Origin: a virus
Taxonomy: Duplodnaviria; Caudoviricetes
Length of the DNA stretch: 64,000 bases
Direction: 5' to 3' (one strand)
IMG/VR virus record: IMGVR_UViG_3300033070_001161
Location: 1-64,000 of that record
The position numbers were made by a program, and so were the translations under genes. Numbering within the stretch: the first letter of the stretch is position 1; each line of letters opens with the position of its first letter. Below, one piece after another: positions 35,551 through 56,012 of this stretch. The notes under the pieces were generated by a model. The model made no database searches. It saw nothing but the letters and a program-made list of their open reading frames with translations, and was not told where the DNA came from.

Positions 35551-36219
35551 ATGGTAAATAAAATTATTTACAAAACAGGACAAAAATTAGGCAATTTAGA
35601 ATATATCTCTGAAGTAGATGCTCATGTTCGTCCCAACGGAGGAACTAGAAGAAAAGCCATATTTAGATGCAATTGTGGGAAAGAATTTATATGTTTAATT
35701 GAAAGTATTAAGTATGGAAATACTACATCTTGCGGATGTTTAGTAAATCGAAAAGGCGGTAAAACCACACATGGACATACAACTAAGGTAAATAATCTAA
35801 GAACTACAGAATTTATTATATGGCAGGGTATGATTGCAAGATGTGGTGGTTATAAAACAGGTAGAAAGTATAAACGTTATGCTGCTAGGGGAATAAATGT
35901 ATGTGAGAAGTGGTTAAATTCTTTTGATGATTTTTTAAAGGATATGGGGTTTAGACCTAGTAAAAATCATAGCTTAGATAGGATAGATAATAATGGAAAT
36001 TATTGTCCAGAGAACTGTAGATGGGCAACAATAAAAGAACAAAATAGGAATAAATCTACTAACAGATTAGTTACTTTTAATGGTAAAACTCAATGTATTT
36101 CGGATTGGGCAGAAGAAATAGGTATAAATAGAGCTACATTATATGATAGAATTGAAAATTGGCCAATAGAAAAGGCATTGACAACTCCATTAATGAGAAA
36201 AAATAAAAATATCGCATGA
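35551..36219 (+). mobile_element. Free-standing HNH-type homing endonuclease
   Basis: CNCG...TTSCGC zinc motif, YAARGINVCEKW, SLDRIDNNGNYCPENCRWAT..EQNRN, C-terminal HTH. Confidence 0.85.
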
Positions 36220-39655: not shown

Positions 39656-39664
39656 TATTTTTGC
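39656..39664 (+). promoter_or_regulatory. -7 promoter box
   Basis: TATTTTTGC, 14 nt upstream of the ATG at 39679; weak -33. Confidence 0.45.
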
Positions 39665-39678
39665 AAAAAAATAACTAT

Positions 39679-40452
39679 ATGAAGGTTTGTTGGGTAACTT
39701 GTTTTGCAGGAAGACACGATAAAGTAGAAAGAGTAATCAAATGTTTTATGGATCAGGTATATGACGATTATATGTACCTACTACTTTATAATAATTCAAA
39801 AAATCATCAATTTCTAGATTTTATAGAAATGCCTGAAAATAAACAAATTATATTAGTTAATAACTATTTGGACAAAGAATCAGGTAGTGAATATACCAAT
39901 ACAGGAGCAATATTTAGAGACGCTCTTACATTCGTACCAGAAGATGTAAATATTATTAATTTTGCAGATAGTGACGATATATTCCTACCAAACCATACAA
40001 AAGAAGGAGTAAAGGGATATAAAGATGCAATTTCTATAAATCCTGCTTTTAAAGCATATAAACCATTTTTTTCATATTATTTACATGATGATAATCAAGT
40101 AGATAAAGCTCACAATAATATGGAGCCTTCAATTTTTGTTAATTTTGATTATGTAAAAAATACAGGTTTTTATTATGTTCCTGCATCATATCATCAAAAA
40201 TGGTTAACTCCTTTACAGAAGAACTATAATATATACCAACCTTTAAAAGGTGTACCTACATTCCTATATTGTTGGGAATCAGGTCATAATACACATAAAA
40301 TATCAGGACTTGGAGATCACGCTGATAATTTTACAAATCATCGAAAATTTGAAGTAGATGATGGTGATAGTGTACTATCTCCGGCTTTAAACTACGAAGT
40401 GGAGAAATATTATACATTAATAAAACAGAAACAAATTGCCAATTTTAAATAA
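39679..40452 (+). CDS. GT-A fold glycosyltransferase (GT2-like)
   Basis: N-terminal VTCFAGR..VERVIKCFMDQ, FADSDDIFLPNH DxD motif; start at ATG 39679 preferred. Confidence 0.75.
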   Translation: MKVCWVTCFAGRHDKVERVIKCFMDQVYDDYMYLLLYNNSKNHQFLDFIEMPENKQIILVNNYLDKESGSEYTNTGAIFRDALTFVPEDVNIINFADSDDIFLPNHTKEGVKGYKDAISINPAFKAYKPFFSYYLHDDNQVDKAHNNMEPSIFVNFDYVKNTGFYYVPASYHQKWLTPLQKNYNIYQPLKGVPTFLYCWESGHNTHKISGLGDHADNFTNHRKFEVDDGDSVLSPALNYEVEKYYTLIKQKQIANFK

Positions 40453-43400
40453 TTTCGGTCCTATTATTATATCTAGTACAAATTCTAGCTCAATTACATT
40501 AGATAATTGTGCTGTAGAAAATGTTATGGGTATAGGTAGTGCTAAAATATACGTTAATAATAAAATGACGGTTCTTGGAAAAGTTAAATTCCAGAACTCA
40601 AATAATGTATCTTTTGGCATGAATGGATCAGTTATTACGGCTTCTGCACTAGCGGGATCAGGTGCAAACTTTGTATTAAGTAATACCAATGGTATAAGTT
40701 TTGGTACGGCAGGTAGTGTTGTAACAGCAAGTTATACAGTTCCTACAGACTATTTTTCTTCAAATCAGTCTACTCTTTTACAACTTACTGCAAATAATAG
40801 TTTATCTTTAGGTACTAGTTATACTTCCCACACACATAGTCAATATTTAAATACATCTCAATCCACTCTGTTTTTAACCAATCAGAGTGTGCAACCTATT
40901 TCTATATCTGCATCTAATGGATCAACAACCCTGATTTCATTACAACTTGGTACTGAAAATGGTCTTACTTTATATCATAGTAATGGTTCTATATTAGGTA
41001 GTTATACAGATGGGGGCGGTGGAGGTGCAGATGGCATTAATAGAATATCAGCAGGTACGCAAATAGCAGGACTTACACAAACAGTAGTACTAAGTAATTC
41101 TAACAATGTAAGTTTTGGAATGAATGGTAATTCAGTGGTTACTGCTTCTGCAAGTTATTCACAACCAACAGATTATATATCAACTGCTCAAAGCAGTTTG
41201 TTCCAACAGACATCATTAATGTCTAATTATTTAGGAACAGAATATACATCACATAGTCATTCTCAGTATTTAAATACATCTCAAAGTAGCTTATTTCAGG
41301 CAACTTCTGATAATTCATTATCTCTTGGTACTGAATATACATCCCACACACATAGTCAGTATGTAAACACTTCACAAAGTAGTCTTTTTCAACAGACATC
41401 TTTGATGAGTAATTATTTAAATACTTCACAATCATCTCTGTTTGAACAGAGTTCCCATACTACCATATTTTTAACTTCTCAAAGTGCTCAAGCATTTAGT
41501 GCTTCTGGAGGTTCTTCTACTTTTCAGACTCTTAATTTTGCAAACTCAAACGGGTTTACATTTAGCAATACTAATGGTAGTATTCGTGCAAGTTACACTG
41601 TACCAACAGATTATGTATCTACAAACCAAAGTAGTTTATTTGCTTTAACTGCAAATGATTCTCTTTCTTTAGGTACTGGATATACAACACATACACATTC
41701 ACAATATCTGAATACTTCTCAATCATCATTGTTTGAGCAGTCTTCTCATACAACTATTTTCCTGACAACTCAGAGTGGACAAGCATATTCTGCTGGTAAT
41801 GGAAGTAATACTTTCCAAACACTCTCTGTAGCTGATAGTAATGGTGTATCATTTTCTACTGGCACTCAAGGATTATATGCTACTGTAAGAACAAACTATG
41901 CATCTTCAGATCATAGTCATGGTAATCCTACTCTTGCTTTAACAAATTTAACTGGTACAACTGCTTCAAACTCAGGAGGTTTTACATTATCTTTATCTGC
42001 CGCAGCAGGCGGAGGGGGTGCTGATGGTTATAATATATTAGCTGCTGGTACACAAACAGCAACTACGGCAGGTACTGTTGTATTGTCAAATAGTAATGGT
42101 ATATCTTTTGGTATGAGTAATAGTAGTGTTATAACTGCTTCTTATACAGTGCCTACTGATTATGTATCAACAGCTCAATCCTCCCTATTTTTTCAAACAT
42201 CCAACTCATCTTTATTTGAGTTGTCATCTCATACAACTTTATTCCTTACTACTCAAAGTGGTCAGGCATTTAGCGCAAGTGGAGGATCGTCTACATTCCA
42301 AACATTATCATTTCAAGATAGTAATGGTGTATCTTTCAGTAATAATGCAGGTGCAATCAGAGTATCACACGCACTTCAATTTACAAGTAATACTTCTGCA
42401 ATTACAGCAAGTGCTTTAAATACCTCCCAGAGTAGTCTTTTTCAGCATACTTCTGCAACAAGTGCAATTACTTCAAATGCTTTAAATACATCACAAAGTT
42501 CATTATTTCAACATACTTCAGCTACTTCAGCAATAACCTCTAATGCATTGAATACCAGTGCTTCACGAGTTATTAATATTATAGCAGCAACTAATAATAC
42601 TGGTGGTGGTACAGCATCTTTATCAAGCAATGTATCCTTTAGCAATGCTAACGGTATGACATTTTATACATCTGCTGGTAGTGCTATAGTAGGTAGTTAT
42701 ACAGTGCCTACTCTTACAAACAGTTCGCTTACAATGCAAGCTGGAGCATCAACTCTTAGCTCTGTAAGTAGAATTGCTTTTGGGGATGGTAATGGAGTTT
42801 CATTTGGTGCGTCAACATCAAACAATGGTTCAATTACTATAACTGCATCAGTAGCAACAAGTTATGCAGCATCAAATCACTCACATGGCAATCCTACATT
42901 AGCTCTTACAAACTTATCTGGAAGTACAGCAAGTAATAGTGCAGGATTAACTCTTTCTTTGTCTGCTGCTGCACCGGGGGCCGGAGGTGGTATTGTATTA
43001 GCAAACTCACAAACCACATATACTTCAGGAACAGTTAATTTATCTGGAGCTGGAGCTATTACAATTCAGTCTACAACAGGACAAAGCTTCCAGATTAGTG
43101 TACCTGCAACATCTTCATTATCAGCCACTGGTATAATTTCCATTTCAACAAATGGGTCTACAGTGTCTATTGGAGCTTCTCAAAGTAACCAAAACATATC
43201 ATTATATGCTTTAGGAAACACTACTCAGAATTCTTCTACAGTGTTGAATGCCAGTGCTTTATCATTTAATGGACTTAATGGTGCTACAGTAGGATTCTCA
43301 AATGGTAGTATTCAAATTAGTGCAGCAACAGGCGGAACAGGAGGAGGTGGAGGAGGAATAGCCTTAGCTAACTCTCAGACTACTTATACTTCCGGTACAG

Positions 43401-44155
43401 CTCACTTATCTGGTGCAGGTGCTATTAGTGTTATATCTACCACTGGACAATCCTATATATTAAGTGCTCCCGGATCATCATCTATCTCTGGAACTGGTCA
43501 AGTATCTATTTCAGTAAATGGTTCTACTATTTCTATAGGAGTACCTAATGGTGAAACAAGAAGTTTTTATAATCCATATTCTGATATACCTATGGTTGCA
43601 GGTCAGGCTGGTCAGGGTACATTAAATATAAACCCTAACGATTTTCCCAATATTACATTTGATAGAATTTATATGCCAATAAATAATACAAATTCTTCAA
43701 ACTCTTCAGGATCACACACTTTATCTTTTTGGGTAGGATTATATACAAGAAATAACTCAACTTTATCTCTTGTGATGAGTGCATCACAATCATATACAAT
43801 TGTTCACTCTGGTACAGCAGGAAGTTATTCCTTATATTCAGGTATGCGACATGTAAGTATTCCATTAAGTTCATCTCTAAGTGAAGGTTTATATTTTGTA
43901 GGTATAGTCTCTCGTACAACATCTGGTGGAGCAAATGGATCATATTCTCAATTTGTAGCATCTAATATTAACTCTAACTTCTTAGGACATTTTGGTTCTT
44001 CTCATAATACAACATATCAGTTTAGACCCGGAATAGGTGTATATTCTGTTACAACTAGTGGTATACCTTCATCTATTGCAATTTCTCAACTTAGAGGTTC
44101 TGATTCACAAGGATTAAGACCTCCAGTATTAATTTTTGCAAATTCTACAATCTAA
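40436..44155 (+). CDS. Ser/Thr/Gly-rich repetitive fibre protein with HxH metal motifs
   Basis: 1239 aa, TTG start overlapping the GT stop; repeated NTSQSSLFQ, SNSNGxSFG, SYTVPTDY and SHGNPTLALTNL modules; six HxH motifs; very few charged residues. Confidence 0.7.
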   Translation: MPILNNFGPIIISSTNSSSITLDNCAVENVMGIGSAKIYVNNKMTVLGKVKFQNSNNVSFGMNGSVITASALAGSGANFVLSNTNGISFGTAGSVVTASYTVPTDYFSSNQSTLLQLTANNSLSLGTSYTSHTHSQYLNTSQSTLFLTNQSVQPISISASNGSTTLISLQLGTENGLTLYHSNGSILGSYTDGGGGGADGINRISAGTQIAGLTQTVVLSNSNNVSFGMNGNSVVTASASYSQPTDYISTAQSSLFQQTSLMSNYLGTEYTSHSHSQYLNTSQSSLFQATSDNSLSLGTEYTSHTHSQYVNTSQSSLFQQTSLMSNYLNTSQSSLFEQSSHTTIFLTSQSAQAFSASGGSSTFQTLNFANSNGFTFSNTNGSIRASYTVPTDYVSTNQSSLFALTANDSLSLGTGYTTHTHSQYLNTSQSSLFEQSSHTTIFLTTQSGQAYSAGNGSNTFQTLSVADSNGVSFSTGTQGLYATVRTNYASSDHSHGNPTLALTNLTGTTASNSGGFTLSLSAAAGGGGADGYNILAAGTQTATTAGTVVLSNSNGISFGMSNSSVITASYTVPTDYVSTAQSSLFFQTSNSSLFELSSHTTLFLTTQSGQAFSASGGSSTFQTLSFQDSNGVSFSNNAGAIRVSHALQFTSNTSAITASALNTSQSSLFQHTSATSAITSNALNTSQSSLFQHTSATSAITSNALNTSASRVINIIAATNNTGGGTASLSSNVSFSNANGMTFYTSAGSAIVGSYTVPTLTNSSLTMQAGASTLSSVSRIAFGDGNGVSFGASTSNNGSITITASVATSYAASNHSHGNPTLALTNLSGSTASNSAGLTLSLSAAAPGAGGGIVLANSQTTYTSGTVNLSGAGAITIQSTTGQSFQISVPATSSLSATGIISISTNGSTVSIGASQSNQNISLYALGNTTQNSSTVLNASALSFNGLNGATVGFSNGSIQISAATGGTGGGGGGIALANSQTTYTSGTAHLSGAGAISVISTTGQSYILSAPGSSSISGTGQVSISVNGSTISIGVPNGETRSFYNPYSDIPMVAGQAGQGTLNINPNDFPNITFDRIYMPINNTNSSNSSGSHTLSFWVGLYTRNNSTLSLVMSASQSYTIVHSGTAGSYSLYSGMRHVSIPLSSSLSEGLYFVGIVSRTTSGGANGSYSQFVASNINSNFLGHFGSSHNTTYQFRPGIGVYSVTTSGIPSSIAISQLRGSDSQGLRPPVLIFANSTI
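42413..42559 (+). repeat. In-frame 66-nt tandem repeat (ALNTSQSSLFQHTSATSAITSN x2 plus partial)
   Basis: Identical 22-aa units with synonymously diverged codons starting at 42413, 42479 and 42545. Confidence 0.85.
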
Positions 44156-44703
44156 TGGCAGGTACAGCAACTATATATTGGATATCACAATCAGCAGGAG
44201 GAGGAGGTTGTCCTTTTTTAGCAACTTCTTGGGTAGGTACTACAAACTGGCAGGAATCACCTACGGGTATATGGGGTCCTATATCACATCCTCCTAATGG
44301 TGAGGGTATGGTGAATGATAGTATTGCAGGTGACGGTTATATACAAGCAGAATATAACAATACAGATAATGAATCTACAGCCATATTCCTTACAACACTA
44401 GAATCTCCAACTACTCCATATTATGAAAATGTAGAATACGGACTGTATATAAATTCTGATGGTAATTACTGGAGTGCTACAGGAGGAGCAACATATACTG
44501 ATTTATCTGTTCTTGCAGTATCTGGCGATTTATTTAGAGTAATAAGAACAGGAACAACCATAAAAGGTCAGTATTATAGATCAGGTTCGTGGACTGATTT
44601 AGTGACATATACTACAGGAAGTACAGGAACTCTTTATTTAGGAGTATCGTCTGCCAATCCCGGTGTACCAAAATATTGTAGAAACCCAAAATATTGTAAT
44701 TAA
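44155..44703 (+). CDS. Small beta-rich virion/adhesion protein (lectin-like fold possible)
   Basis: Gly/Thr/Tyr-rich alternating beta pattern; overlapping stop/start coupling between fibre and lyase. Confidence 0.5.
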   Translation: MAGTATIYWISQSAGGGGCPFLATSWVGTTNWQESPTGIWGPISHPPNGEGMVNDSIAGDGYIQAEYNNTDNESTAIFLTTLESPTTPYYENVEYGLYINSDGNYWSATGGATYTDLSVLAVSGDLFRVIRTGTTIKGQYYRSGSWTDLVTYTTGSTGTLYLGVSSANPGVPKYCRNPKYCN

Positions 44704-46001
44704 TGGCAACCTATTATATTTCTCCTTCAGGTAATGATACAACAGGTTCTGGTACAATTGGAAGTCCTTGGTTTTCTTTAAATAAAGTATGGGCTTCTGC
44801 TGGATTAGTAGCAGGAGATACAGTTTATTTAAGGGGAGGAACTTATACATATACAATACAACAGTACTTAACTGGAAAAAATGGTTCATCTGGAAATACT
44901 ATAAAACTATATAATTATCCGGGAGAGGCTCCAGTAATTACCCGTGGTGCTAGTTTTGATAAGTCAGCAGGACACCATAGAGGAATGGTTTATTTAGAAG
45001 GCAACTACTTTCATGTAAAAGGAATTAGATTTACTGGAATGTATACAGATGATAATCAGGTAGATGCTGGTCTACAAACTTACAATGTAAATAACTGTAG
45101 ATTTGAATTACTGGAATGTGATAATAATGTAGAAGGAATGATCGTAGAGAATAATTCATCAGGAAATCTGATTATAAATTGTGATTTTCACGATAATTAC
45201 TCGAATTATAGTGGTACAAATGGTGGAAACTCAGATGGACTGGGTATAACTTATAATCTAAATGCATCAAGTACAAATACCGTAGAAGGATGTAGAGCTT
45301 GGAATAACGGGGATGACGGATTTGATACATTTGAATGTTTAGGATTTGTAACTTTTAGAAAATGTTGGTCATGGCACAATGGTTTTCAATATGGTACTAC
45401 TACTCCAGCAGGTAATGGGACAGGTTTTAAACTAGGTTCTGACTTCCTTGGCCCAAATCCGGGAGTTGTTAAACGTAGAATGGAAAACTGTATTGCATGG
45501 GATAACGGAGATTCTTCAGCATCAGGTGGTGCAGCAGGTGCTCACATTAATGAGGCAGAACATCTTGTAGAAATATATAACTGCACATTCTTTGATAATG
45601 GTATTACAGGATTCAATCTTCACTATAATAATGGTGCTCACGTACTTAGAAATGTAATATCTTTTAATAATGCCAGTAAGGATGTTGAAACCAGTACGAA
45701 TAGTAGCTCATTAACTTGTTCTTATGGAACTGGATCAAGTGACGCTTTATCAGGATGGACTCAAAATGCCACTACTGGAGATTTTGTATCAGTAACTCCT
45801 ACAGGAGTAAGTGGTGCTAGACAAGCTGGAGGTAGTCTACCAGTTGTAACATTTTTACATCTTACAGCAGGTAGCGATATGATAGATACAGGAACAAATG
45901 TAGGACTTACTTATATAGGTTCTCCAGATAGAGGAGCTTTTGAATATGGATTATCAGAACTTGAAAGCGGAAATAATGCCACTTTAGCATGGTTTTCTTA
46001 A
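44703..46001 (+). CDS. Right-handed beta-helix polysaccharide lyase (PL9-like) depolymerase
   Basis: YYISPSGND..G.GT..SPW, GDTVYLRGGTY, GNSDG, CRAWNNGDDGFD, GNGTGFKLG. Confidence 0.8.
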   Translation: MATYYISPSGNDTTGSGTIGSPWFSLNKVWASAGLVAGDTVYLRGGTYTYTIQQYLTGKNGSSGNTIKLYNYPGEAPVITRGASFDKSAGHHRGMVYLEGNYFHVKGIRFTGMYTDDNQVDAGLQTYNVNNCRFELLECDNNVEGMIVENNSSGNLIINCDFHDNYSNYSGTNGGNSDGLGITYNLNASSTNTVEGCRAWNNGDDGFDTFECLGFVTFRKCWSWHNGFQYGTTTPAGNGTGFKLGSDFLGPNPGVVKRRMENCIAWDNGDSSASGGAAGAHINEAEHLVEIYNCTFFDNGITGFNLHYNNGAHVLRNVISFNNASKDVETSTNSSSLTCSYGTGSSDALSGWTQNATTGDFVSVTPTGVSGARQAGGSLPVVTFLHLTAGSDMIDTGTNVGLTYIGSPDRGAFEYGLSELESGNNATLAWFS

Positions 46002-46007
46002 TAAAAA

Positions 46008-46040
46008 TTTGCTTTTTAACTAAATACTTATTATCTTTGC
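46008..46040 (+). promoter_or_regulatory. Bacteroidota-type promoter
   Basis: TTTG (46008-46011), N20, TATCTTTGC (46032-46040). Confidence 0.75.
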
Positions 46041-46060
46041 ACTAAAACCAAAAAATAAAG

Positions 46061-46795
46061 ATGGGTAACGAAGCTAAAATACATTTTGATCCTTTATATA
46101 GCTATGCAGGATATCATAATTCAAATCCTGAAACAAACAAAAGACTCTCAAAATCAAAAAGTTATGAAGATTTATCCACAATATGCATTGTACCTTGTGT
46201 AGGGGGAATTCCTCCAAAAATAGTACAATCGTGGAGAGGTATGATGACACCAATGAATCAGAGATTTATTATGATTATGGTGGAAAAAATGGAAGTGGGA
46301 CAGGCTTATTCAACTACAATTGAACAAATTCTTGCAAATCCTGAACTTTCTAAATGGAAATACATACTAACAATCGAGCATGATAATGCACCTCCTCCCG
46401 ATGGACTTCTCAAACTATATGAAAATATGGATAAATATGACGGTATAGGAGGATTGTATTTTACAAAAGGTGAAGCTGGTCAACCTATGTGTTATGGTAA
46501 ACCAAATTCATTTCCTGTTAATTTTATTCCATTTATGCCTGATCCTGAGACAGTTACACCATGTAGAGGTATCGCTATGGGATTTTCTCTTTTCAAAATG
46601 GAAATGTTTAAGGATAAACGTCTACCAAGACCTTTATTTGAAACAAAACAAGAGTATATTCCCGGAGTAGGTGCTCAAGCTTATACACAAGACCTCAAGT
46701 TTTGTGAGGAAGCAGGTAAATTGGGATATAAATTTGCTGTAGATTCAAGGGTTAAAGTAGGACATTACGATTACGCTAACGATTTTATGTGGTAG
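46061..46795 (+). CDS. GT-A fold glycosyltransferase (GT2-like)
   Basis: YILTIEHD, IGGLY, GIAMGFSLFK, TQDLKFC, VKVGH pattern. Confidence 0.7.
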   Translation: MGNEAKIHFDPLYSYAGYHNSNPETNKRLSKSKSYEDLSTICIVPCVGGIPPKIVQSWRGMMTPMNQRFIMIMVEKMEVGQAYSTTIEQILANPELSKWKYILTIEHDNAPPPDGLLKLYENMDKYDGIGGLYFTKGEAGQPMCYGKPNSFPVNFIPFMPDPETVTPCRGIAMGFSLFKMEMFKDKRLPRPLFETKQEYIPGVGAQAYTQDLKFCEEAGKLGYKFAVDSRVKVGHYDYANDFMW

Positions 46796-46824
46796 ATTAT
46801 TACTAATTAAAAACTAAAAAAAAA

Positions 46825-47010
46825 ATGGATATACAAAAACCTTACGTATTTTATGATCAATACGGTAATTTATGGGAATGTGAATTTGGTTCTTGTGATA
46901 TTTTACCAAATCCACAAAATATGTGGAATGGAATAGCACAAAGAATCAATTTGGAAGAAATGCAAAATGATCCTCATGAAAAAAATGTGAAAGTAAAAAC
47001 AAACCAATAA
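46825..47010 (+). CDS. Small hypothetical protein
   Basis: 61-aa ORF with an A-rich start context filling the gap between genes. Confidence 0.55.
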   Translation: MDIQKPYVFYDQYGNLWECEFGSCDILPNPQNMWNGIAQRINLEEMQNDPHEKNVKVKTNQ

Positions 47011-47013
47011 ATA

Positions 47014-47616
47014 ATGGCAAAAAAACAAACCAAAAAAGAAGAAAAAGTATCAGAGGTATTAGAAGTAGTACCTGTAAAACCAGTAAGAATTGACTTTGGC
47101 TGTGGTCAAAATTGTACAGTAGGTGAAGATGGTGAAAAATATATAGGAGTAGATTTTGTAAAATGTGAAGGTGTTGATATAGTGCATGATTTAACTAGTT
47201 TTCCTTATCCTTTTGAGGATAATAGTGTAGATGAAATCGTAAGTAGTCACTTTGTAGAACACCTTACAGGTGAAGATTTCATGAAACATATGGATGAATG
47301 TTGGAGGATTCTGAAACCTAATGGTAAAATGAGGCTCATACACCCTTATTGTTTTTCAGAAAGAGCTTTTCAGGACCCAACTCACAAGACATTTATTCCT
47401 GCTGCTCGTTATCTTTATTTTGATAAAAACTGGAGAGCAGTTAATAAATTAGATCATTACCCAATTAAGAGTGATTATAGTTTTGAAGTGCATGTATCAT
47501 TCCATAATGATAAAGGTGAAAATTGGACAATGAGAGAAGAAAAATTCAGAAATTTTGCTATGGCACATTATATTAATGTAGTAGCTGATCTGATTGTTTA
47601 CTTAACTAAACGCTAA
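47014..47616 (+). CDS. Class I SAM-dependent methyltransferase (Methyltransf_11-like)
   Basis: IDFGCG, YIGVD, DIVHDL...PFEDNSVDEI.SSHFVEHL, RILKPNG. Confidence 0.85.
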   Translation: MAKKQTKKEEKVSEVLEVVPVKPVRIDFGCGQNCTVGEDGEKYIGVDFVKCEGVDIVHDLTSFPYPFEDNSVDEIVSSHFVEHLTGEDFMKHMDECWRILKPNGKMRLIHPYCFSERAFQDPTHKTFIPAARYLYFDKNWRAVNKLDHYPIKSDYSFEVHVSFHNDKGENWTMREEKFRNFAMAHYINVVADLIVYLTKR

Positions 47617-47617
47617 T

Positions 47618-48724
47618 ATGAGAGAATATAGTATAATTTCATGCGTAGAGGATAATGAGCGATTTATTTGGGAAACTACTGTTCAATTACATAACGCTAG
47701 GAAATATAATCTTTCTGATAAATTCAGAATATTAGTATTTCTACCTGCTTATAATCTTTCCAAAGGAATATCGCCAAAATGGAAGCAATTAGCAGAAATA
47801 TTCAAAGAAACTAAATTCTTTTTCTTTGTAGATAAAAATGCAAAAGTTACAGATTTAGCAGTAGAATATCAATATATACCTATTCATAGGTTATCTTCAT
47901 TAGAACAACATTTTAAAGATTTTCCAGAGCTTGAAAAGCAAGCTATATTATATATAGATAGTGACGTTATTTTTACATCCACTCCTAAATTCTTAGATTA
48001 TTTAGATGATGATGTAAACTACCTTTCTGATACACGTACTTATTTAAATCATGAGTATCTTGTATCTAAAACAAAGGATGTAATTAAAGAAAAGCAGGAA
48101 GAATATACAAAAGCAAATATAATAGCTAAAGCAGTATCATTTGCAAAAATCACTGAAGAAGATTTAAAAGAACACAATGATAGCACCGGAGGAGCACATT
48201 ATTTATTTAAAAATATTACATCTAAATTCTTCTCCTCATGCATAGAAACATGTTTACTGGTAAGAATGTATTTTCAAATCGTAAATCAACAGTGGTTTCC
48301 CGGAGAGTTTCCTCAAGAAAAAGAAAACAACGGTATACAAAGTTGGTGCGCAGATATGTGGTCCATTCAATGGAATTTATGGAGATTCAAATTACCATCA
48401 GAAACACCAAGTTGGATGGACTTCGCTTGGGCCACAGAAGAAACATCCAAATTAGATAAGCGTTTCTGGATGCATAATGCAGGGGTTACAGCAGATTCAA
48501 AAATAAGAATAGTTGATAATTTAAAAACCAAAAAAGATGAAGCTGGAAATCCTATTATTATAGATGCTCCTGCTTTTTATAAAGAAGCTTACAAGAACAA
48601 ATCAGTATTTGACGATGTTGAAAATCTACAAAAAATAGTAAATCATCCTGAATCTTCTAAATATTGTACATCTGTATATGTTCAGGAAATTATAGATACA
48701 TACAATTCACTAATAAAAAAATAA
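47618..48724 (+). CDS. GT-A glycosyltransferase resembling peptide O-glycosyltransferases (GT96 SERGT1 / GT95 HPAT-like)
   Basis: RFIWETTVQLH, YIPI, LYIDSDVIF, GGAHYLF, SWCADMW and WMHNAG occur in the same order as SERGT1 motifs recalled from memory. Confidence 0.55.
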   Translation: MREYSIISCVEDNERFIWETTVQLHNARKYNLSDKFRILVFLPAYNLSKGISPKWKQLAEIFKETKFFFFVDKNAKVTDLAVEYQYIPIHRLSSLEQHFKDFPELEKQAILYIDSDVIFTSTPKFLDYLDDDVNYLSDTRTYLNHEYLVSKTKDVIKEKQEEYTKANIIAKAVSFAKITEEDLKEHNDSTGGAHYLFKNITSKFFSSCIETCLLVRMYFQIVNQQWFPGEFPQEKENNGIQSWCADMWSIQWNLWRFKLPSETPSWMDFAWATEETSKLDKRFWMHNAGVTADSKIRIVDNLKTKKDEAGNPIIIDAPAFYKEAYKNKSVFDDVENLQKIVNHPESSKYCTSVYVQEIIDTYNSLIKK

Positions 48725-48730
48725 ACAAAA

Positions 48731-49138
48731 ATGAATAACAGAACACGAATTTTTACACGTTTGGATGCCAAGAAAAACCGTATTCCCGGATCATCTGTAC
48801 AACGCAAAAGTATGCCTAAAGTGGGCGATTGGGTTGAAGAGGATGTTAACCTATGTTGTGCCCCATATGTATTACTTACTGCTACACCAGCAGATGTTAC
48901 AGATGATGTATTTAACGTAGTAATTTCATGTAGTGCTTCCCCTGTACTTACTCAGGTGGTAACACTCGCAGCAGCTACTACTACTATTCAAGAGGTAGTA
49001 GATGGATTAAACAGTAAAGCATCCCATCTTGGTGTATTCCAAGTAGACGGAAGTAATATACTTTTAAAGTTGAAGCAAGATATAGCAGATACACTTTGTA
49101 CAGATTCTGCAAATCTTACTTTAGCTATCACCGTATAA
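48731..49138 (+). CDS. Hypothetical, probable virion protein
   Basis: Basic N-terminus (R..PGS..R..MPKVG.W.E..CC) and beta-rich C-terminus. Confidence 0.5.
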   Translation: MNNRTRIFTRLDAKKNRIPGSSVQRKSMPKVGDWVEEDVNLCCAPYVLLTATPADVTDDVFNVVISCSASPVLTQVVTLAAATTTIQEVVDGLNSKASHLGVFQVDGSNILLKLKQDIADTLCTDSANLTLAITV

Positions 49139-49148
49139 ATAAACTTTT

Positions 49149-49556
49149 ATGGCAATCTTAATTGGGGATGAAAGTTCCTCTAAATCATTGACTATTGAAC
49201 AAATAGCGTCAAGGCTTTCGTATTTCTATGAGCAAATACATCTGCTCCATTGGCAAACAACATCTATTGCTGAACATCAATCTTTAGGATCATTATATGA
49301 AAAACTAGTAGATTTTAAAGATGAAATAATTGAAAAGCTGATGGGATATATGTCAAAGCGACCGTCTGCTTTTAAAATAGAACCATTAGTTAATTATAGT
49401 CAAGGTGTTCCTCAAAAAATGGTGAAAGCATTAGCTACATTTGCTACTCAATTAGAAAGTTGGGCAGAAGAACAAGAATATTGTGATGTAGAACAAATAG
49501 CACAAACGCTAAATGGGGAAGCTAATAAGACACTATATCTATTAACTCTAAGCTAA
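49149..49556 (+). CDS. Ferritin/Dps-like four-helix protein (DUF5856-like)
   Basis: QIHLLHWQT.S.AEH.SLG.LYE.L.DFKDEIIEKLMG. Confidence 0.7.
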   Translation: MAILIGDESSSKSLTIEQIASRLSYFYEQIHLLHWQTTSIAEHQSLGSLYEKLVDFKDEIIEKLMGYMSKRPSAFKIEPLVNYSQGVPQKMVKALATFATQLESWAEEQEYCDVEQIAQTLNGEANKTLYLLTLS

Positions 49557-49558
49557 AT

Positions 49559-49840
49559 ATGGAAGTATCATATAAGAATTTTACAAAAGATCATATTCTA
49601 GACAATGAGGCTCATTATTTTGATTTGTTGGAGACGCTTATTGATAGTATGGACAGTAATTCCTACTTCACAATAATAAAGAATCCAGAAGATTATACTT
49701 TTCGACTTAGTTTATCTATTAGAAAAATAGATCATATAATAAGTCATATAAACTCCCTCAATAACGCATGGGGAATAAAAGCAGATTTTTCTAAATCTAT
49801 GAGATCAGGAAATATTTTTTGGAAAATTCATATAAGTTAA
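49559..49840 (+). CDS. Hypothetical protein
   Basis: 93-aa ORF, closely packed with neighbours. Confidence 0.55.
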   Translation: MEVSYKNFTKDHILDNEAHYFDLLETLIDSMDSNSYFTIIKNPEDYTFRLSLSIRKIDHIISHINSLNNAWGIKADFSKSMRSGNIFWKIHIS

Positions 49841-49850
49841 TTACCTTTAC
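49818..49850 (+). promoter_or_regulatory. Variant Bacteroidota-type promoter
   Basis: TTTGGAAAATTCA (same as at 550), 20-nt spacer after TTTG, TACCTTTAC. Confidence 0.5.
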
Positions 49851-49871
49851 ACTATAAAACCAGATAAAAAA

Positions 49872-50300
49872 ATGAAAACAATTAAATTAAAAACTAAATA
49901 TCTCGAAAACTATTTAGTTGAAATCTTTGGATCGGACAGGGTACAAGACCCACTTCTTTTAAAGAATATTTCTCAAAAAACTAAATTCAACCTAAAAAAA
50001 CTAGGTAATTCAATTCAAACAGAATATCGTCAAGTAGTTGATCATATTAAAGAATTATTTGATGAGTACCATGAGGAATATATACCAGAAGGAGAAAGCA
50101 CTCCTAAGAAAAGAATTAAAGAAGGATTAAGTGAGGAATTTAATACCAAACTTAAAGAACTTGATGAACTTGTCGTAGAGATACAAACAGTAGAATTCAC
50201 CGAAAAAGACTTTACAGATGTTGTTACAAAAGAAATTGTTGCAGGAAGCGTATATTACAATATTCTCGATGTCCTGTTATGGGAAGAACAAGTTGATTGA
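49872..50300 (+). CDS. Hypothetical acidic helical protein
   Basis: 142-aa ORF, last gene before the convergent terminator. Confidence 0.6.
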   Translation: MKTIKLKTKYLENYLVEIFGSDRVQDPLLLKNISQKTKFNLKKLGNSIQTEYRQVVDHIKELFDEYHEEYIPEGESTPKKRIKEGLSEEFNTKLKELDELVVEIQTVEFTEKDFTDVVTKEIVAGSVYYNILDVLLWEEQVD

Positions 50301-50320
50301 TTACATTGTTGACATAAGTA

Positions 50321-50348
50321 AAAAAGCCCCTAATTAAAGGGGCTTTTT
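50321..50348. terminator. Bidirectional Rho-independent terminator
   Basis: AAAAAGCCCCT-aattaa-AGGGGCTTTTT at the convergence of the plus and minus gene blocks. Confidence 0.9.
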
Positions 50349-51929
50349 CGTTTGTGGCCAATTATTAACATATTCTCTTAATTCTTCTTTTGACATTGCT
50401 CTTATCTTTTCCAGCTCTTCGTAATTCTTACCAAACATAGGATTCGATCCTCCACTATCAGGTCCACACCAATGATCTACGTGATATACTATTCCTTTGA
50501 TTCTCAGGATTTTATATCCTAATTTATCAAATCGTTCATATCTCTCCACATCTTCCGGGCCGTAGCTTATAAAGTTTTCATTCTCTCCTCCTCCTTCAAA
50601 AAACTTGTCTTTATTCCATATAATAATATGTCCTACACTCTTAGGATCAAATGGTCGTGTTCCTTTAAACACCGTACTACCTAATATACCCACATCTCCT
50701 CCTCTATCCCTCAGTTTGCGATACCACTCCACTCTATTTAATCGAGCTACCCTACCATCATAAGGATACACCATATCAGCTTCTCCTCGTCTAATAGCAT
50801 CTACACCAAGTTTCATCTGTAGAATTGAACATATATTATCGCAATCGAAATTTATTACACACTTATAACTTAATGCACTACTAGCCATAACATTTAACAT
50901 TCGAGTTCTATGAAAATGTTCTCCTCCAAATATACTATAATTATGATTGGGTAGAAATTTACCAAAGAAATTGCCTCCTTGTTCTCCTACATGAATCGTA
51001 GATTCAAAATTATTCTCAATCCATTTGAGAATTAATTCCATATTTTCTTCTCTATCTTTATGGTCATACTTTACAGGAATTGTAAAATATGCATCTTTTA
51101 TATCAAGTTTTTCACCTCTATAATCATATGATGTCCAATCTTCCGGCCAAAAATCATCAGTGTTATGTGTTTCTTCCAAATATCCTTTAAAGTATTTAGA
51201 AGGATATACAACAGTACTATCTGGTTTTTGTCCAAGATAAGCCTGCCACCATGAAAATGTGCTATTAGGTATAATAAAATGATCGCAGAATGTACCTAAA
51301 CAGAGCTGTTCTATATCAGATAATCCATCTGCAAAATGGATACTTTCATGACAATCTAAATGGCGTTTAGCATAGTCATAATTATCACTAAATACAAGAA
51401 TGTTATTTTCCTGTTCCCAATTTGGGAAATATTTATATAAAGCTCCAAGTTGATATTTAATATCTAAAATTTCATAATTTCCATTATCTACATAATCTTC
51501 TGCTACACGTATACCAATTAATATTGTATGTTTATTATTTGAAAATATATGACTATATTGTTCATACAACCTATATTTAAATTCAGGTATAAAATTAAAT
51601 AATAAACCACTTATATCAGACCTATAGTGTGCCCAATATTTAGGAGATTGCAACCATCCTGTAACGCTAACATGTTCCTTTCCTTCAAACTGTTCCTTCC
51701 AATAATCCCATCCAGAGAATGAGTAAGATGGTTCACCTATATCCTGTTTAAAATCTCCTCTTGGAATAAGAGGAATATTAGATGTAAAATATTCAGCATA
51801 ATTCCATTCAGGAAGTGCTAATTTCCTATTAAATCGTTTTGACATTCCATATAATGCAGCTAATTGAAACATTGAGTTTCCAAGTCTACCCATTCTTCGT
51901 CCAAATTTAGAATAAGAAATAGTTTTCAT
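50334..51929 (-). CDS. Bifunctional glycosyltransferase: GT11 (alpha-1,2-fucosyltransferase-like) fused to GT2/GT7C (galactosyltransferase-like)
   Basis: N-half GRLGNSMFQ, GWLQSPKYW, VFSD, HFIIPNSTFSWWQAYL; C-half FHRTRMLN, NFDCD, GGENENFISYGPEDVER..R..G..I.R..G..YH.DH. Confidence 0.8.
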   Translation of the reverse strand: MKTISYSKFGRRMGRLGNSMFQLAALYGMSKRFNRKLALPEWNYAEYFTSNIPLIPRGDFKQDIGEPSYSFSGWDYWKEQFEGKEHVSVTGWLQSPKYWAHYRSDISGLLFNFIPEFKYRLYEQYSHIFSNNKHTILIGIRVAEDYVDNGNYEILDIKYQLGALYKYFPNWEQENNILVFSDNYDYAKRHLDCHESIHFADGLSDIEQLCLGTFCDHFIIPNSTFSWWQAYLGQKPDSTVVYPSKYFKGYLEETHNTDDFWPEDWTSYDYRGEKLDIKDAYFTIPVKYDHKDREENMELILKWIENNFESTIHVGEQGGNFFGKFLPNHNYSIFGGEHFHRTRMLNVMASSALSYKCVINFDCDNICSILQMKLGVDAIRRGEADMVYPYDGRVARLNRVEWYRKLRDRGGDVGILGSTVFKGTRPFDPKSVGHIIIWNKDKFFEGGGENENFISYGPEDVERYERFDKLGYKILRIKGIVYHVDHWCGPDSGGSNPMFGKNYEELEKIRAMSKEELREYVNNWPQTKKPL

Positions 51930-52663
51930 ATTATACGTGTTTTATTATTTAAAATTCTACATATTAATGCTGTAGATACCTTATATTCTTTAGATAATTT
52001 TTTATGGGTATAATATCCAGTTTTATATTTATTTCTTATATCAATTATATCTATATCTAATAATTTGGAGTTCCAATGATCTTCTCCAAATACTTTTTTA
52101 ATTTTTCCATTCTTTAATCCTATTGTTCTAGCCGTAGATAATGCTTTTTTATGACTATCTGATTTATTAATACCTTTAGTAGATAAAGATATTTTTTGTT
52201 TTGTCTTTTCTGAATGCTTAAATTTTTTTAATTTTCTAGTAGCTGTTCTTTTTTCTATAGATATTGGATTTAATTTAATTCCTAAATGACATTTAGATAT
52301 TTTAATTTTAGTTTCTTTTGTATGTTTTTTACTTGATAATTTTATTTTAGTTTCTTCTGAGTGTTTTCCTCTACTTCCTGCATTTCTGATATTTAAAAGA
52401 GTAAATCCACAATCTTTATATAAATCCATATATAATTGCTCATATTTATCTAAAATATCCTGAGTTACATCCAGTGGTAACTCTTGAATTATTTGAAAAT
52501 AATGATTTTCAATTCCATATTTTTTTAAAGAATTATACAACTTTTGTTGATTTATACAAGAATATGATTTATATTTAGATAATCTCGCTACTATATTCCA
52601 AGATTGTCCAATATAAATCTTATTACTAGGGCTAATAAATTTATATATTACAGGGTTACTCAT
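51926..52663 (-). mobile_element. Free-standing GIY-YIG homing endonuclease with NUMOD3 repeats
   Basis: VIYKFISPSNKIYIGQS, KH[ST]EETK repeats, C-terminal HTH. Confidence 0.85.
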
Positions 52664-53226
52664 AATTTTTGAAATATTAATAGAGTATTTTTAAAATATT
52701 CATAATGTCCTTCTATAACAGATCGAGCGTATGTAGTAGGTTCCATTAAAAATTTCATATTTCTTTTACATACTTGTTCAATCACCCATGTATTTTCTTG
52801 ACAATTTACATGGCCTATTCCATCTTGTCCCGGAACTGCCCATGATAATATTAGCACTTTTGAATGTGCTGTATTATAACATATATTGTTTAAAAATTGA
52901 TCTGTATATTCAAGGGGAATGTGTTCTCCTACTTCTAAACATAATGAATTACCTATAGGGTCTTTTGTTATAGGTGATGTTAAATCTTGTTCCATTATAT
53001 TTGAAAATTCTCCAAAATCTCGTATATTAGGTGTACCTTCTATACCATGTAAAAGTTCAAACCCCCTATCATGAAAATATCTAAGATATGATCCTACACC
53101 ACATCCCCAGTCTATAAGTACATCCTTTTTATCTAAATAATCACCTATCCATTTAGCCAATCTGTAGCTAAAGTCATGGCTACTACTGGCTTCATTTATT
53201 GTCCATATTCCTGTTTCTGTAGGCAT
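52660..53226 (-). CDS. Class I SAM-dependent methyltransferase
   Basis: IDWGCGVGSYL, LEVGEHIP, LILSWAVPGQDGIGHVN. Confidence 0.8.
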   Translation of the reverse strand: MPTETGIWTINEASSSHDFSYRLAKWIGDYLDKKDVLIDWGCGVGSYLRYFHDRGFELLHGIEGTPNIRDFGEFSNIMEQDLTSPITKDPIGNSLCLEVGEHIPLEYTDQFLNNICYNTAHSKVLILSWAVPGQDGIGHVNCQENTWVIEQVCKRNMKFLMEPTTYARSVIEGHYEYFKNTLLIFQKL

Positions 53227-53227
53227 A

Positions 53228-53635
53228 TTATTCTTTATATTCTAAGTTATATTTACTATAATGTTTATCCCAAAGTTCTTTATCTTTCTGTTTTTCATAT
53301 TGTCTAATCAAAGCTCGTTCACCATCATAATCAAATAATTTATTAAGCATATCACGAAGAGAATCTATTGTAAAGGTAGTATTTACGGGCTTTTCTTTCA
53401 TTTGTTCATATATACCTTTCGTTGATGATTTAAAATCAGGTTTAGGATACTTTTCTGCAAAATAAGCATCATGTACTTCTTGAGGGATAGATTTATATTT
53501 ATGCTCCCAAGGAAACCATTCTGGATATTTATCAATAATTATACGTACTCTTTCCATTGTTTCTCTACCAACATATTTTACATGGTTATATACCATTACT
53601 TCTTGTACTTCAGTAGGGATTAAACTAGTTATCAT
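53228..53635 (-). CDS. Hypothetical protein
   Basis: 135-aa ORF coupled to its neighbours. Confidence 0.55.
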   Translation of the reverse strand: MITSLIPTEVQEVMVYNHVKYVGRETMERVRIIIDKYPEWFPWEHKYKSIPQEVHDAYFAEKYPKPDFKSSTKGIYEQMKEKPVNTTFTIDSLRDMLNKLFDYDGERALIRQYEKQKDKELWDKHYSKYNLEYKE

Positions 53636-54279
53636 TTCTTTTCAATTACAATTAATTCTTTATAAAAAGATATAGATGCTATCATATCTTCATATTTCTC
53701 CAATCCTCCGTAATTCTGTGTATTACTGATATGTTCAAAATTAAGAACATCAGTGAGACGCTTAAAAAAGTTCATTGTAGTGTTTGTATAAGGATCACCA
53801 CCATCATCACCCTGATATTCTTCACTATCCCAATAGCTTGTATGTACATCTTCCACAATATAATACCCTCTTTCGTTTAATAGAGGAAATAATATTTCAA
53901 AAGATCGTATAGTTCTTTGATTATTATGACTAGCATCATCAATGATAATATCAAAATGGTTCCCTTTCATTATCAATTTTAAAAAGAAATCCCTATCATT
54001 CTGATCGCCTATATGTGTTTCTATTCTGTTAGGAACATTTAAAAATTCTTTTTTATATATATCTACACCTATTATTTTAGCATTTGGTAAATAATCAGCA
54101 AAAGCTTTTAAATCACCTCCTCCCCTATCTTCATAATGATACCCACCTATTCCTAATTCTAATAATGTAAAATCAGAATGTCTAATTGGGTCTAATATTC
54201 TTGTATATATAGGGGAGTAATTATGATGATTACTCCCCTTATCACTTCCATATTTATTAAATAATTCGTCTAACGTCAT
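53632..54279 (-). CDS. Sugar O-methyltransferase (MycE/ElmMI-like)
   Basis: KYGSDKG..H.Y...Y, LLELGIGG, IIGVDI, GDQND, DIIIDDASH, GYYIVEDVHTSYW. Confidence 0.75.
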   Translation of the reverse strand: MTLDELFNKYGSDKGSNHHNYSPIYTRILDPIRHSDFTLLELGIGGYHYEDRGGGDLKAFADYLPNAKIIGVDIYKKEFLNVPNRIETHIGDQNDRDFFLKLIMKGNHFDIIIDDASHNNQRTIRSFEILFPLLNERGYYIVEDVHTSYWDSEEYQGDDGGDPYTNTTMNFFKRLTDVLNFEHISNTQNYGGLEKYEDMIASISFYKELIVIEKK

Positions 54280-55646: not shown

Positions 55647-56012
55647 TTATTTCCTTAAAAATTCATCCCAAAGTTCTTTTTCTTCGTCTACTTTTTCTTC
55701 CTTAATATGCTTTACTACACCATGTTCATTTGGTTTTCCCCATTTACGTTTTTTAATTATTTCAAATTTATCACGTATAAGATTGACGATATCATCATAC
55801 TCATATCCATTGATATGAGCAGACTCAAATAATAGTATAAAGCAATCAGCATATTCGTTTTTTATATTTTGGCTATTTGGAGAAGTTGATTTCAACTCCT
55901 CCATAAGCTCTACAATTTCCTCTTCTAAATGTTTCAATTTAGAAACATTTGAACCATGTGGAAAGGTTTCTCTTTGCCATTCTGTTATTTCTTTAAATAA
56001 TTCACTAGTCAT
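55647..56012 (-). CDS. dATP/dGTP pyrophosphohydrolase (DUF550, MazG-like fold)
   Basis: W..ETF, LKHLEEEI.EL, EYADCFILL, K.....KRKW.KP. Confidence 0.7.
   Translation of the reverse strand: MTSELFKEITEWQRETFPHGSNVSKLKHLEEEIVELMEELKSTSPNSQNIKNEYADCFILLFESAHINGYEYDDIVNLIRDKFEIIKKRKWGKPNEHGVVKHIKEEKVDEEKELWDEFLRK

Follow-up and report, generated by a model that had tools for sequence, protein, structure and literature searches.

Putative O-glycosylation of virion proteins by enzymes encoded in an environmental tailed phage lineage

What use does a tailed phage have for five glycosyltransferase (GT) domains in four genes and three S-adenosylmethionine (SAM) methyltransferases, encoded between positions 39661 and 54279 around a large Ser/Thr-rich fibre? 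The stretch in question ("the window") makes up the first 64 kb of a viral contig of 81 kb in IMG/VR (record IMGVR_UViG_3300033070_001161; ~70% complete according to CheckV), and an initial annotation, made from this sequence, proposed that the enzymes form one linear initiate-extend-cap-methylate pathway that coats the fibre with a mucin-like glycan. Comparison with other phages leaves virion O-glycosylation as the best-supported reading, though not as a single pathway built around the fibre. We put at roughly 60% the probability that the phage encodes O-glycosylation of its virion proteins by at least two separable modules, together with accessory enzymes that extend and methylate the glycans.

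The scheme that we propose is as follows. Soluble cytoplasmic enzymes would draw on host nucleotide sugars and SAM, and would attach to virion proteins, either ahead of assembly or in its course, O-linked glycans that are partly methylated. Module B, the core of the clade (47618–49138), would supply a retaining-type, glycogenin-like GT of the GT-A fold, which probably adds the first sugar to runs of threonine, and these runs would serve virion proteins as portable tags. Relatives carry such runs on the adjacent CC-domain proteins (described below), on a head-module protein of ~380 amino acids (aa) and sometimes on fibre-like proteins. Module A, a putative mobile fibre cassette (40436–47616), comprises the fibre, a beta-helix protein, a GT-A enzyme resembling A197 and a methyltransferase, and its pair of enzymes probably decorates the fibre. 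Module C is accessory (a GT2-like enzyme at 39661 and, on the opposite strand, a GT11-GT7C protein, the 52660 methyltransferase and a MycE-like enzyme) and probably lengthens and methylates the glycans. We infer the protein target, the order of the steps and the sugars used, and likewise a benefit in shielding, solubility or adhesion.

The observations concern folds, families, solubility, synteny and co-occurrence. They come from 80 loci fetched with the core GT at 47618, 80 loci fetched with the capsid protein, complete genomes of relatives, and cultured phages (single loci and genomes are cited by L and G numbers). One complete relative of 122 kb, G001, has a core GT 89% identical to that of the window. 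The capsid gene itself lies outside the window's contig; because the major capsid protein of G001 is of the Crassvirus type (PF23898, E 6.6e-23), the window phage can be classed as an environmental crAss-like phage.

The central enzyme, encoded on the plus strand at 47618–48724, is the proposed protein O-glycosyltransferase for threonine-rich tags. It belongs to phrog_4417 and is assigned a glycogenin/GT8-like fold from its AlphaFold2 model and its DxD motif; the family occurs in at least 443 IMG/VR viral contigs. The model, built with 37 homologues (pLDDT 95), has the GT-A fold, and its best structural match is glycogenin (Z 15.2, root-mean-square deviation 3.6 over 235 residues), followed by UGGT, the Skp1 galactosyltransferase, LgtC and GlyE (UGGT, LgtC and GlyE at Z of ~13–14, GlyE at 13.5). 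Several of the closest structures are enzymes that glycosylate proteins, namely glycogenin, UGGT, the Skp1 galactosyltransferase and GlyE of serine-rich adhesins. The aspartates of D114xD116 are invariant in the family, and the catalytic motifs DSD, GGAQ, W-x-A-D/E-M-W and HNAG are visibly common to the homologues from crAss-like phages and from phages of Gram-positive hosts. A Pfam search of the protein with E up to 10 returned no family, Glyco_transf_8 included, and only a chance match to NosL; the family profile found spurious short matches among PDB sequences, and single-sequence PDB searches with the 39661, 46061, 47618 and 50334 proteins gave nothing meaningful.

The initial annotation had labelled this enzyme GT96/GT95. 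An identity with GT95/GT96 (the HPAT and SERGT1 peptide O-glycosyltransferases) is not supported, direct hidden Markov model tests being negative or marginal: the Pfam HPAT family (PF23452) does not match the protein at E up to 10, and matches only two of the 37 homologues, at E of ~0.013. Genome-level searches for HPAT (E up to 1) gave no match, though the controls of the same search were also silent, and the sole lead was an Atlas neighbour cluster in which 10% of the members carry HPAT.

A candidate acceptor is suggested by the company that the core GT keeps. Homologues were found by tblastn in 62 cultured phage records, of which we inspected 13, comprising 12 phages of Gram-positive hosts (Enterococcus, Staphylococcus, Lactococcus, Lactobacillus, Levilactobacillus, Clostridium and Arcanobacterium) and one Chryseobacterium phage. 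All 13 encode a protein with a threonine-rich tract within 3 kb of the GT homologue. The tract is a poly-Thr run in 11 of them and a set of PTTV (proline-threonine) repeats in two Lactobacillus myoviruses, and the poly-Thr run mostly forms the C terminus of a major capsid or tail protein. The GT homologue itself lies inside the head/tail morphogenesis module in most of the 13, usually right after the major capsid or major tail gene; its neighbours are unannotated or non-structural in both Lactobacillus myoviruses and in the phage of Chryseobacterium. In several of these phages, codons for poly-Thr run on in a different frame, or in frame directly beyond the stop annotated for the capsid or tail gene (L104:2731-2830 in VPE25, L108:2634-2897 in Staphylococcus phage SA2, L107:2687-2893 in Arcanobacterium phage TPWB06 and L109:2926 in bIL285), which suggests that programmed frameshifting or readthrough may give a longer, tagged form.

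The complete relatives of the window phage carry poly-Thr as well. G001 has two runs of six Thr codons, one in the C-terminal tail of a protein of 378 aa whose gene stands three places after that of the capsid, the other in a 117-aa Cys-rich protein encoded just 5' of the tail-fibre genes, and this poly-Thr region corresponds to a part of the genome that is not in the window's contig. A head-module protein of ~380 aa ends in poly-Ser/Thr in 77 of the 80 capsid-fetched loci, G001 included, and two of the three exceptions are cut by the end of the locus. In G003, a more distant complete relative, poly-Thr also occurs on a 502-aa fibre-like protein. The ~380-aa protein matches only a PHROG of unknown function, and it has no Pfam, cultured-phage or Atlas match. 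An endolysin gene (L103:6730-7284) lies within the head/fibre block of G001, between the gene for the 378-aa poly-Thr protein and the fibre genes.

A second group of putative carriers adjoins the core GT. The plus-strand gene at 48731–49138 encodes the CC-domain protein, in which a conserved N-terminal domain of 45 aa, closed by Cys-Cys, is followed by a small globular domain at the C terminus; it is a tail-less copy of its family. Such a protein follows the core GT in 78 of the 80 loci as well as in the window. The family numbers 138 proteins from 79 sources, their genes often standing in arrays of two to four, and 130 of the 137 genes with a known offset begin no more than 3 kb after the GT. 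A run of at least five Ser/Thr is present in 91 of the 138 proteins, typically with at least seven threonines and repeated. Open reading frames (ORFs) dense in Ser/Thr start within 1.5 kb 3' of the core GT in 56 of the 80 loci, against a background elsewhere in the same loci of 0.067 per 1.5 kb. Alignment of the CC-domain family shows conserved cysteines at C42, C43, C67 and C123, and because there are four of them the protein may form two disulfides, which suggests an exposed, extracellular location. Its AlphaFold2 model (pLDDT 85) is a small beta-rich domain to which no fold could be assigned, the best Foldseek match (E 0.12) and the best VIA-align match (Z 5.6) being under the noise level.

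Across the 80 loci, the 47618-type GT has only three constant neighbours, a small downstream protein, a DUF5856 protein and a 93-aa protein. The last two are encoded in the window at 49149–49840 on the plus strand (the DUF5856 protein is Dps/ferritin-like; PF19174, E 2e-11), and are found downstream of the genes for the core GT and the CC-domain protein in 72 and 70 of the 80 loci, respectively.

Where the enzymes work is a further part of the question. No membrane segment was found in any GT or methyltransferase of the region, the Kyte-Doolittle score staying at or below 1.33 in every 19-residue window; it rises to 1.69 and 1.78 in two proteins outside this set, the CC-domain protein at 48731 and RecA at 56005, and neither resembles a membrane protein. 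The initial annotation was right that the window holds no genes for nucleotide-sugar synthesis, and this extends to the rest of the contig and to the complete 122-kb relative, in which the NTP_transferase and epimerase/dehydratase families are likewise absent.

One might suppose that the enzymes remodel the host surface instead, altering lipid-linked precursors of capsule, lipopolysaccharide or O-glycan so as, for example, to block superinfection or to prevent progeny from sticking to debris. GT11, GT2-like and GT8-like enzymes commonly build surface polysaccharides, and the 46061 GT and 47014 methyltransferase belong to receptor-binding cassettes that can be swapped, next to a beta-helix protein that probably degrades glycans; on this explanation the need for enzymes and receptor-binding genes to match would keep them together. 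We consider such remodelling rather unlikely, however, as the enzymes are all soluble and are accompanied by no flippase, polymerase, Gtr-type or other membrane protein, the window shows no sign of lysogeny, and the tight pairing of the core GT with Thr-rich capsid and tail tracts across phyla would be left unexplained.

DNA glycosylation of the T-even kind, in which the GTs would add sugars to modified bases as a protection against restriction, is extremely improbable. Enzymes of phage T4 with the GT-A/GT-B folds do glucosylate hydroxymethylcytosine. Against a similar role here, a search for a thymidylate-synthase-like hydroxymethylase (PF00303), with positive controls, found none in the window's contig or in the complete G001, and the core GT homologues lie in head/tail modules, not in nucleotide-metabolism modules. 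We know of no role in DNA modification for sugar O-methyltransferases or GT11 enzymes.

Glycosylation of virion proteins also has to account for the fibre on which the initial annotation was centred. This 1239-aa repeat protein (40436–44155, plus strand) is a candidate substrate by composition, with 20% Ser and 13% Thr (33% together) and only 4% charged residues. It has no poly-Thr run, and it is not mucin-like, with 2% Pro, no more than eight Ser/Thr in any 15 residues, and HxH repeats that are typical of folded fibres. Its repeated Ser-His-x-His-Ser-Gln-Tyr motifs (the L003 orthologue has seven HxH) resemble the HxH repeats that bind metal in folded phage fibres, for example T4 gp37. The densest Ser/Thr patch of the window, threonine-rich with 10 Ser/Thr per 15 residues, lies near residue 752 (~17886–17930) of a 4363-aa ORF at 15630–28721.

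The position of the fibre is best understood from the relatives. Among the 80 loci it is found solely in L003 and L004, and in these two, as in the window, the block from the fibre to the 47014 gene sits between the GT2-like gene and the core GT. The GT2-like gene directly abuts the core GT in L005, L006, L008, L009 and L016, and in L007 two other fibre genes fill the same site. By this synteny, the block at 40436–47616 reads as an insertion, a mobile unit that parts two GT genes which stand side by side in relatives. As the initial annotation pointed out, the start of the fibre does overlap a GT gene (17 nt, if the start is the TTG at 40436); because the block is inserted between adjacent GT genes, we would treat the overlap as an accident of the insertion site and not as the design of a dedicated operon.

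Four further genes complete the cassette, all on the plus strand. A 182-aa protein (44155–44703) has no family match and is inherited together with the fibre in both L003 and L004; ORFs of ~200–230 aa with 19–29% Ser+Thr (at least 23% in four of the five) occupy the same position before the GT in L199, L200, L201, L203 and L205, and are likened to it by position alone. It is followed by a Pel9A-like right-handed beta-helix protein (44703–46001; PF22842, E 1e-23), probably of the glycan-degrading tailspike type, which is 40% identical to its L003 copy (L003:6740-7978), compared with 61–96% for the flanking genes; this difference suggests recent swapping of a receptor-degrading domain. The GT at 46061–46795 is an A197-like GT-A enzyme, its family profile matching A197 of the archaeal virus STIV (PDB 2c0n) at E 1.3e-7; the protein has no Pfam match of its own, and PF00535 (GT2) is found in 10 of 46 homologues. 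Its partner at 47014–47616 is a SAM methyltransferase (Methyltransf_11, PF08241, E 9e-10).

This enzyme pair does accompany fibres. The two types of gene are adjacent in 18 of 19 further viral loci, and in ~11 of 15 distinct contigs the pair stands directly after a very large fibre (760–2222 aa). The fibres in question have 26–38% Ser+Thr and 1–8% charged residues, some being homologous to that of the window, and as a background only 3.6% of ORFs of at least 300 aa in 160 crAss-like loci reach 28% Ser+Thr. Partial homologues of the window fibre occur 5' of 46061-type GTs in other phages; its C-terminal domain, used as a query, returned two close relatives only. Two near-complete genomes carry the 46061/47014 cassette without the core GT. 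The coupling of the 46061 GT to Ser/Thr-rich fibres is strong, not exclusive, and the fibre is a plausible substrate of this GT and the 47014 methyltransferase. The expected co-occurrence of the GT set with Ser-rich fibres across genomes was thus seen for the pair, but the core GT tracks poly-Thr tags.

These comparisons bear directly on the claim that the eight enzyme domains work one after another, with the 1239-aa fibre as their main substrate, to give it a mucin-like coat. Such a pathway would fit the composition of the fibre and its location among the enzyme genes, and it would fit the association of the 46061/47014 pair with similar fibres elsewhere. Nevertheless, we regard it as unlikely: the fibre block is inserted between GT genes that abut in L006, L009 and L016, the core GT associates with a different kind of tract, and the fibre is low in proline, lacks a dense Ser/Thr run and has HxH repeats that point to a folded protein. 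Moreover, L006 keeps the GT2-like gene, the core GT, the GT11-GT7C gene and two methyltransferases without the fibre (five of the eight enzyme domains, in four of the seven enzyme genes).

We return to O-glycosylation of virion proteins and to the accessory enzymes that would extend it. All four GT genes are present where the initial annotation had placed their five domains, each domain being verified to a varying degree. The GT2-like GT-A enzyme is encoded on the plus strand at 39661–40452 (263 aa from a TTG, with an alternative ATG start at 39679). Its earlier label, GT92, is not borne out, because PF01697 scores 18.9 bits against a cut-off of 23 and the homologues carry PF00535 instead; there are 149 of these, on contigs of ~120 kb, many with the PF00535 (GT2) match. 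On the minus strand, the gene at 50334–51929 encodes a two-domain protein, GT11 followed by a GT7C-like GT-A domain. The GT11 label, that of the alpha-1,2-fucosyltransferase family, is sound (PF01531, E 1.3e-16, 61.2 bits against a cut-off of 23.9, residues 13–247), and the sequence IGIRVAEDY stands at the canonical HxRRGD donor-binding site, with one Arg and an acidic residue kept and the rest altered. The GT7 label is not confirmed: PF02709 (E 1.8e-4) scores 21.5 bits, just under the cut-off of 23, in the protein itself but is recorded in many of its 436 homologues. Many of these homologues also have an N-terminal PF13489 methyltransferase fused to them.

The three SAM methyltransferases differ in the same way. 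The 47014 enzyme is firm and the 53632 enzyme is clearly of the MycE/TylE type; the one at 52660–53226 (minus strand) matches PF13489 weakly on its own, but the corresponding domain is fused in front of GT11-GT7C in many homologues (~720–750 aa), and because of this fusion the 52660 enzyme is likely to be functionally tied to the two-domain GT. In the window the two genes are separated by a GIY-YIG homing endonuclease gene (51926–52663, minus strand; TIGR01453, E 1e-19; phrog_314), a mobile insert that we do not count as part of the pathway. It is missing in L006, where both enzyme genes abut, and a contig from a sludge metagenome joins 51929 to 52666 without the endonuclease gene and with 237 other letters at the site, so the insert is polymorphic.

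A 135-aa protein (53228–53635, minus strand), conserved in L003 and L006 and with no family match, is encoded between the two methyltransferase genes. The last enzyme (53632–54279, minus strand; phrog_21658, E 8e-26) is a MycE/TylE-type sugar O-methyltransferase reduced to its catalytic domain. By phmmer, its residues 3–191 match MycE (PDB 3ssm, residues 184–369) at E 6e-30 and TylE (PDB 8ia9) at E 4e-25; the earlier MycE label is thereby confirmed, with direct sequence support for O-methylation of sugars. A gene of this type is present in 14 of the 80 loci.

As the initial annotation had it, the enzymes are split between convergent strands, which meet at 50300–50334. It could be that only the core GT glycosylates virion proteins, and that the minus-strand GT11-GT7C protein and methyltransferases, perhaps with others, act on some other target, for instance a host metabolite or another phage product. 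The minus-strand genes do share a block with RecA and replication genes, and each of them is found in between 3 and 14 of the 80 loci, an occurrence that does not depend on the core GT. We nevertheless think it quite improbable that the enzymes are so divided, since pairs of GT and methyltransferase genes recur at the same end of the block in the distant lineages L045, L067 and L079, which also carry the core GT, and since MycE-type enzymes, as a family, methylate sugars that are already on an acceptor. The entire enzyme set is kept in a relative at 89% identity, and most of it in one at 57%. Host-surface remodelling, an unrelated target for the minus-strand enzymes and DNA glycosylation are all weakened because the enzymes are soluble, because neither membrane partners nor a hydroxymethylase accompany them and, above all, because the pairing with threonine tags crosses phyla.

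The researcher should also keep in mind the points that weigh against O-glycosylation of virion proteins. None of these virions has so far been observed to carry a glycan. The window's contig contains no run of six Thr codons, in the ~70% of the genome that it represents, and its CC-domain protein lacks the poly-Thr tail that the L007 and L008 orthologues, with the same C-terminal domain, possess; the tagged substrates are therefore deduced from what relatives carry and from the 30% of the genome that the contig lacks. Searches assigned no virion role or location to the ~380-aa and CC-domain proteins. LgtC, which acts on lipo-oligosaccharide, is also among the GT8-like folds that match the core GT model, and Ser/Thr-rich fibres also occur without a 46061-type GT nearby. 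The minus-strand enzymes may be expressed at a different time, because they lie in the RecA/replication block. Finally, the clade offers no negative control, because the core GT appears to be a core gene: a search with the capsid protein for sister genomes without the GT yielded 80 loci that all belong to the same clade, a Leptolyngbya phage being the only cultured capsid match.

A bolder extension is offered tentatively, at somewhat less than even odds. Poly-Thr runs would be a portable glycosylation tag read by the widespread, unannotated phrog_4417 family in phages of at least three bacterial phyla. The clade of the window phage would have dedicated carriers in its CC-domain proteins, each a disulfide-stabilised anchor with a poly-Thr brush, that display a mucin-like glycan coat on the particle. 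The lineage would then have accumulated three modules, each mobile on its own, whose joint product would be methylated hetero-oligosaccharides, possibly of the fucose type, on head proteins and the uncharged fibre. In the searchable literature, to which the primary mycobacteriophage paper does not belong, we found no description of a GT/poly-Thr pairing outside mycobacteriophages.

If virion proteins are indeed glycosylated in this manner, sugar coats would be common among phages of very different hosts, and a simple rule would help one to recognise them, namely a GT gene beside a poly-Thr tag or beside an uncharged, Ser/Thr-rich fibre. A large family of "hypothetical" phage genes would receive an annotation, the interaction of phages with mucus, biofilm matrices, grazers and antibodies would be seen differently, and compact enzyme-plus-tag pairs would become available for glyco-engineering. 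The question can be put to the test in cultured phages with the same core enzyme, such as Enterococcus phage VPE25 and Chryseobacterium phage MA9V-3.

The remaining features of the window are briefly as follows. Its GC content is ~32%; the plus strand carries giant-protein and tail-fibre genes, and the minus strand carries RecA and replication genes. An HNH endonuclease gene (35551–36219) lies between the last giant-protein gene and the tailspike gene. Near-identical or related DNA is present in sludge, bioreactor, river and freshwater metagenomes (~10 studies); two wastewater runs labelled "RNA-Seq" appear to be DNA, with short contigs only. A megablast of the region against cultured phages gave zero matches, and the nearest cultured relatives by single gene are a Chryseobacterium phage (core GT, 28% identity) and the Leptolyngbya phage (capsid, 25% identity). 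NCBIfam offers no informative names for the enzymes of the region.

Among known systems, glycosylation of the phage particle by its own enzymes has been shown experimentally only for mycobacteriophages. In Che8, Corndog and Myrna, phage-encoded GTs glycosylate the virion (Freeman et al. 2023, Cell Host Microbe 31:1216, as summarised in PMC12363180). The resemblance to the present locus, as far as that summary goes, is that soluble phage GTs modify capsid and tail-tube proteins and that the genes are accessory and vary between lineages (PMC12363180). The present case differs in several respects. The phage is crAss-like, with relatives of its core GT in phages of Firmicutes and Bacteroidota; this core GT belongs to the unannotated phrog_4417, and is set beside Che8 gp110 and Corndog gp38 by description only. 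The putative tags are pure poly-Thr, with dedicated small carrier proteins, and the enzyme set is larger (five GT domains and three methyltransferases), though known from its genes alone.

More distant parallels exist for the single components. The chlorovirus PBCV-1 has multi-domain proteins of the A064R type (GT-GT-methyltransferase), and its methylated capsid glycans are made in the cytoplasm. The fused MT-GT11-GT7C proteins (MT, methyltransferase) found in relatives of the window phage have an analogous architecture; PBCV-1, compared here by description only, is by contrast a giant virus of eukaryotes whose glycans are N-linked to Asn and made by unrelated enzymes. A197 of STIV is likewise a small viral GT-A enzyme, from a virus suspected of glycosylating its own structural proteins. 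Its substrate is unproven, STIV infects archaea, and the match to the 46061 family is remote, at the level of profiles.

Glycogenin/GT8 and GlyE-type enzymes share with the 47618 protein the GT-A fold and the DxD motif, and act on protein-linked acceptors (Z 15.2 and 13.5), whereas the sequence identity is only 6–10%, Pfam GT8 does not match and the lipo-oligosaccharide enzyme LgtC fits equally well. The MycE/TylE enzymes, which methylate the 2'-hydroxyl of macrolide sugars, match the 53632 protein in the catalytic domain (at the E-value given above). The phage protein is shorter (215 aa, compared with ~400–420 aa, 419 in MycE) because it lacks the N-terminal auxiliary (tetramerisation) domain, and its acceptor would be a protein-linked sugar instead of a macrolide sugar.

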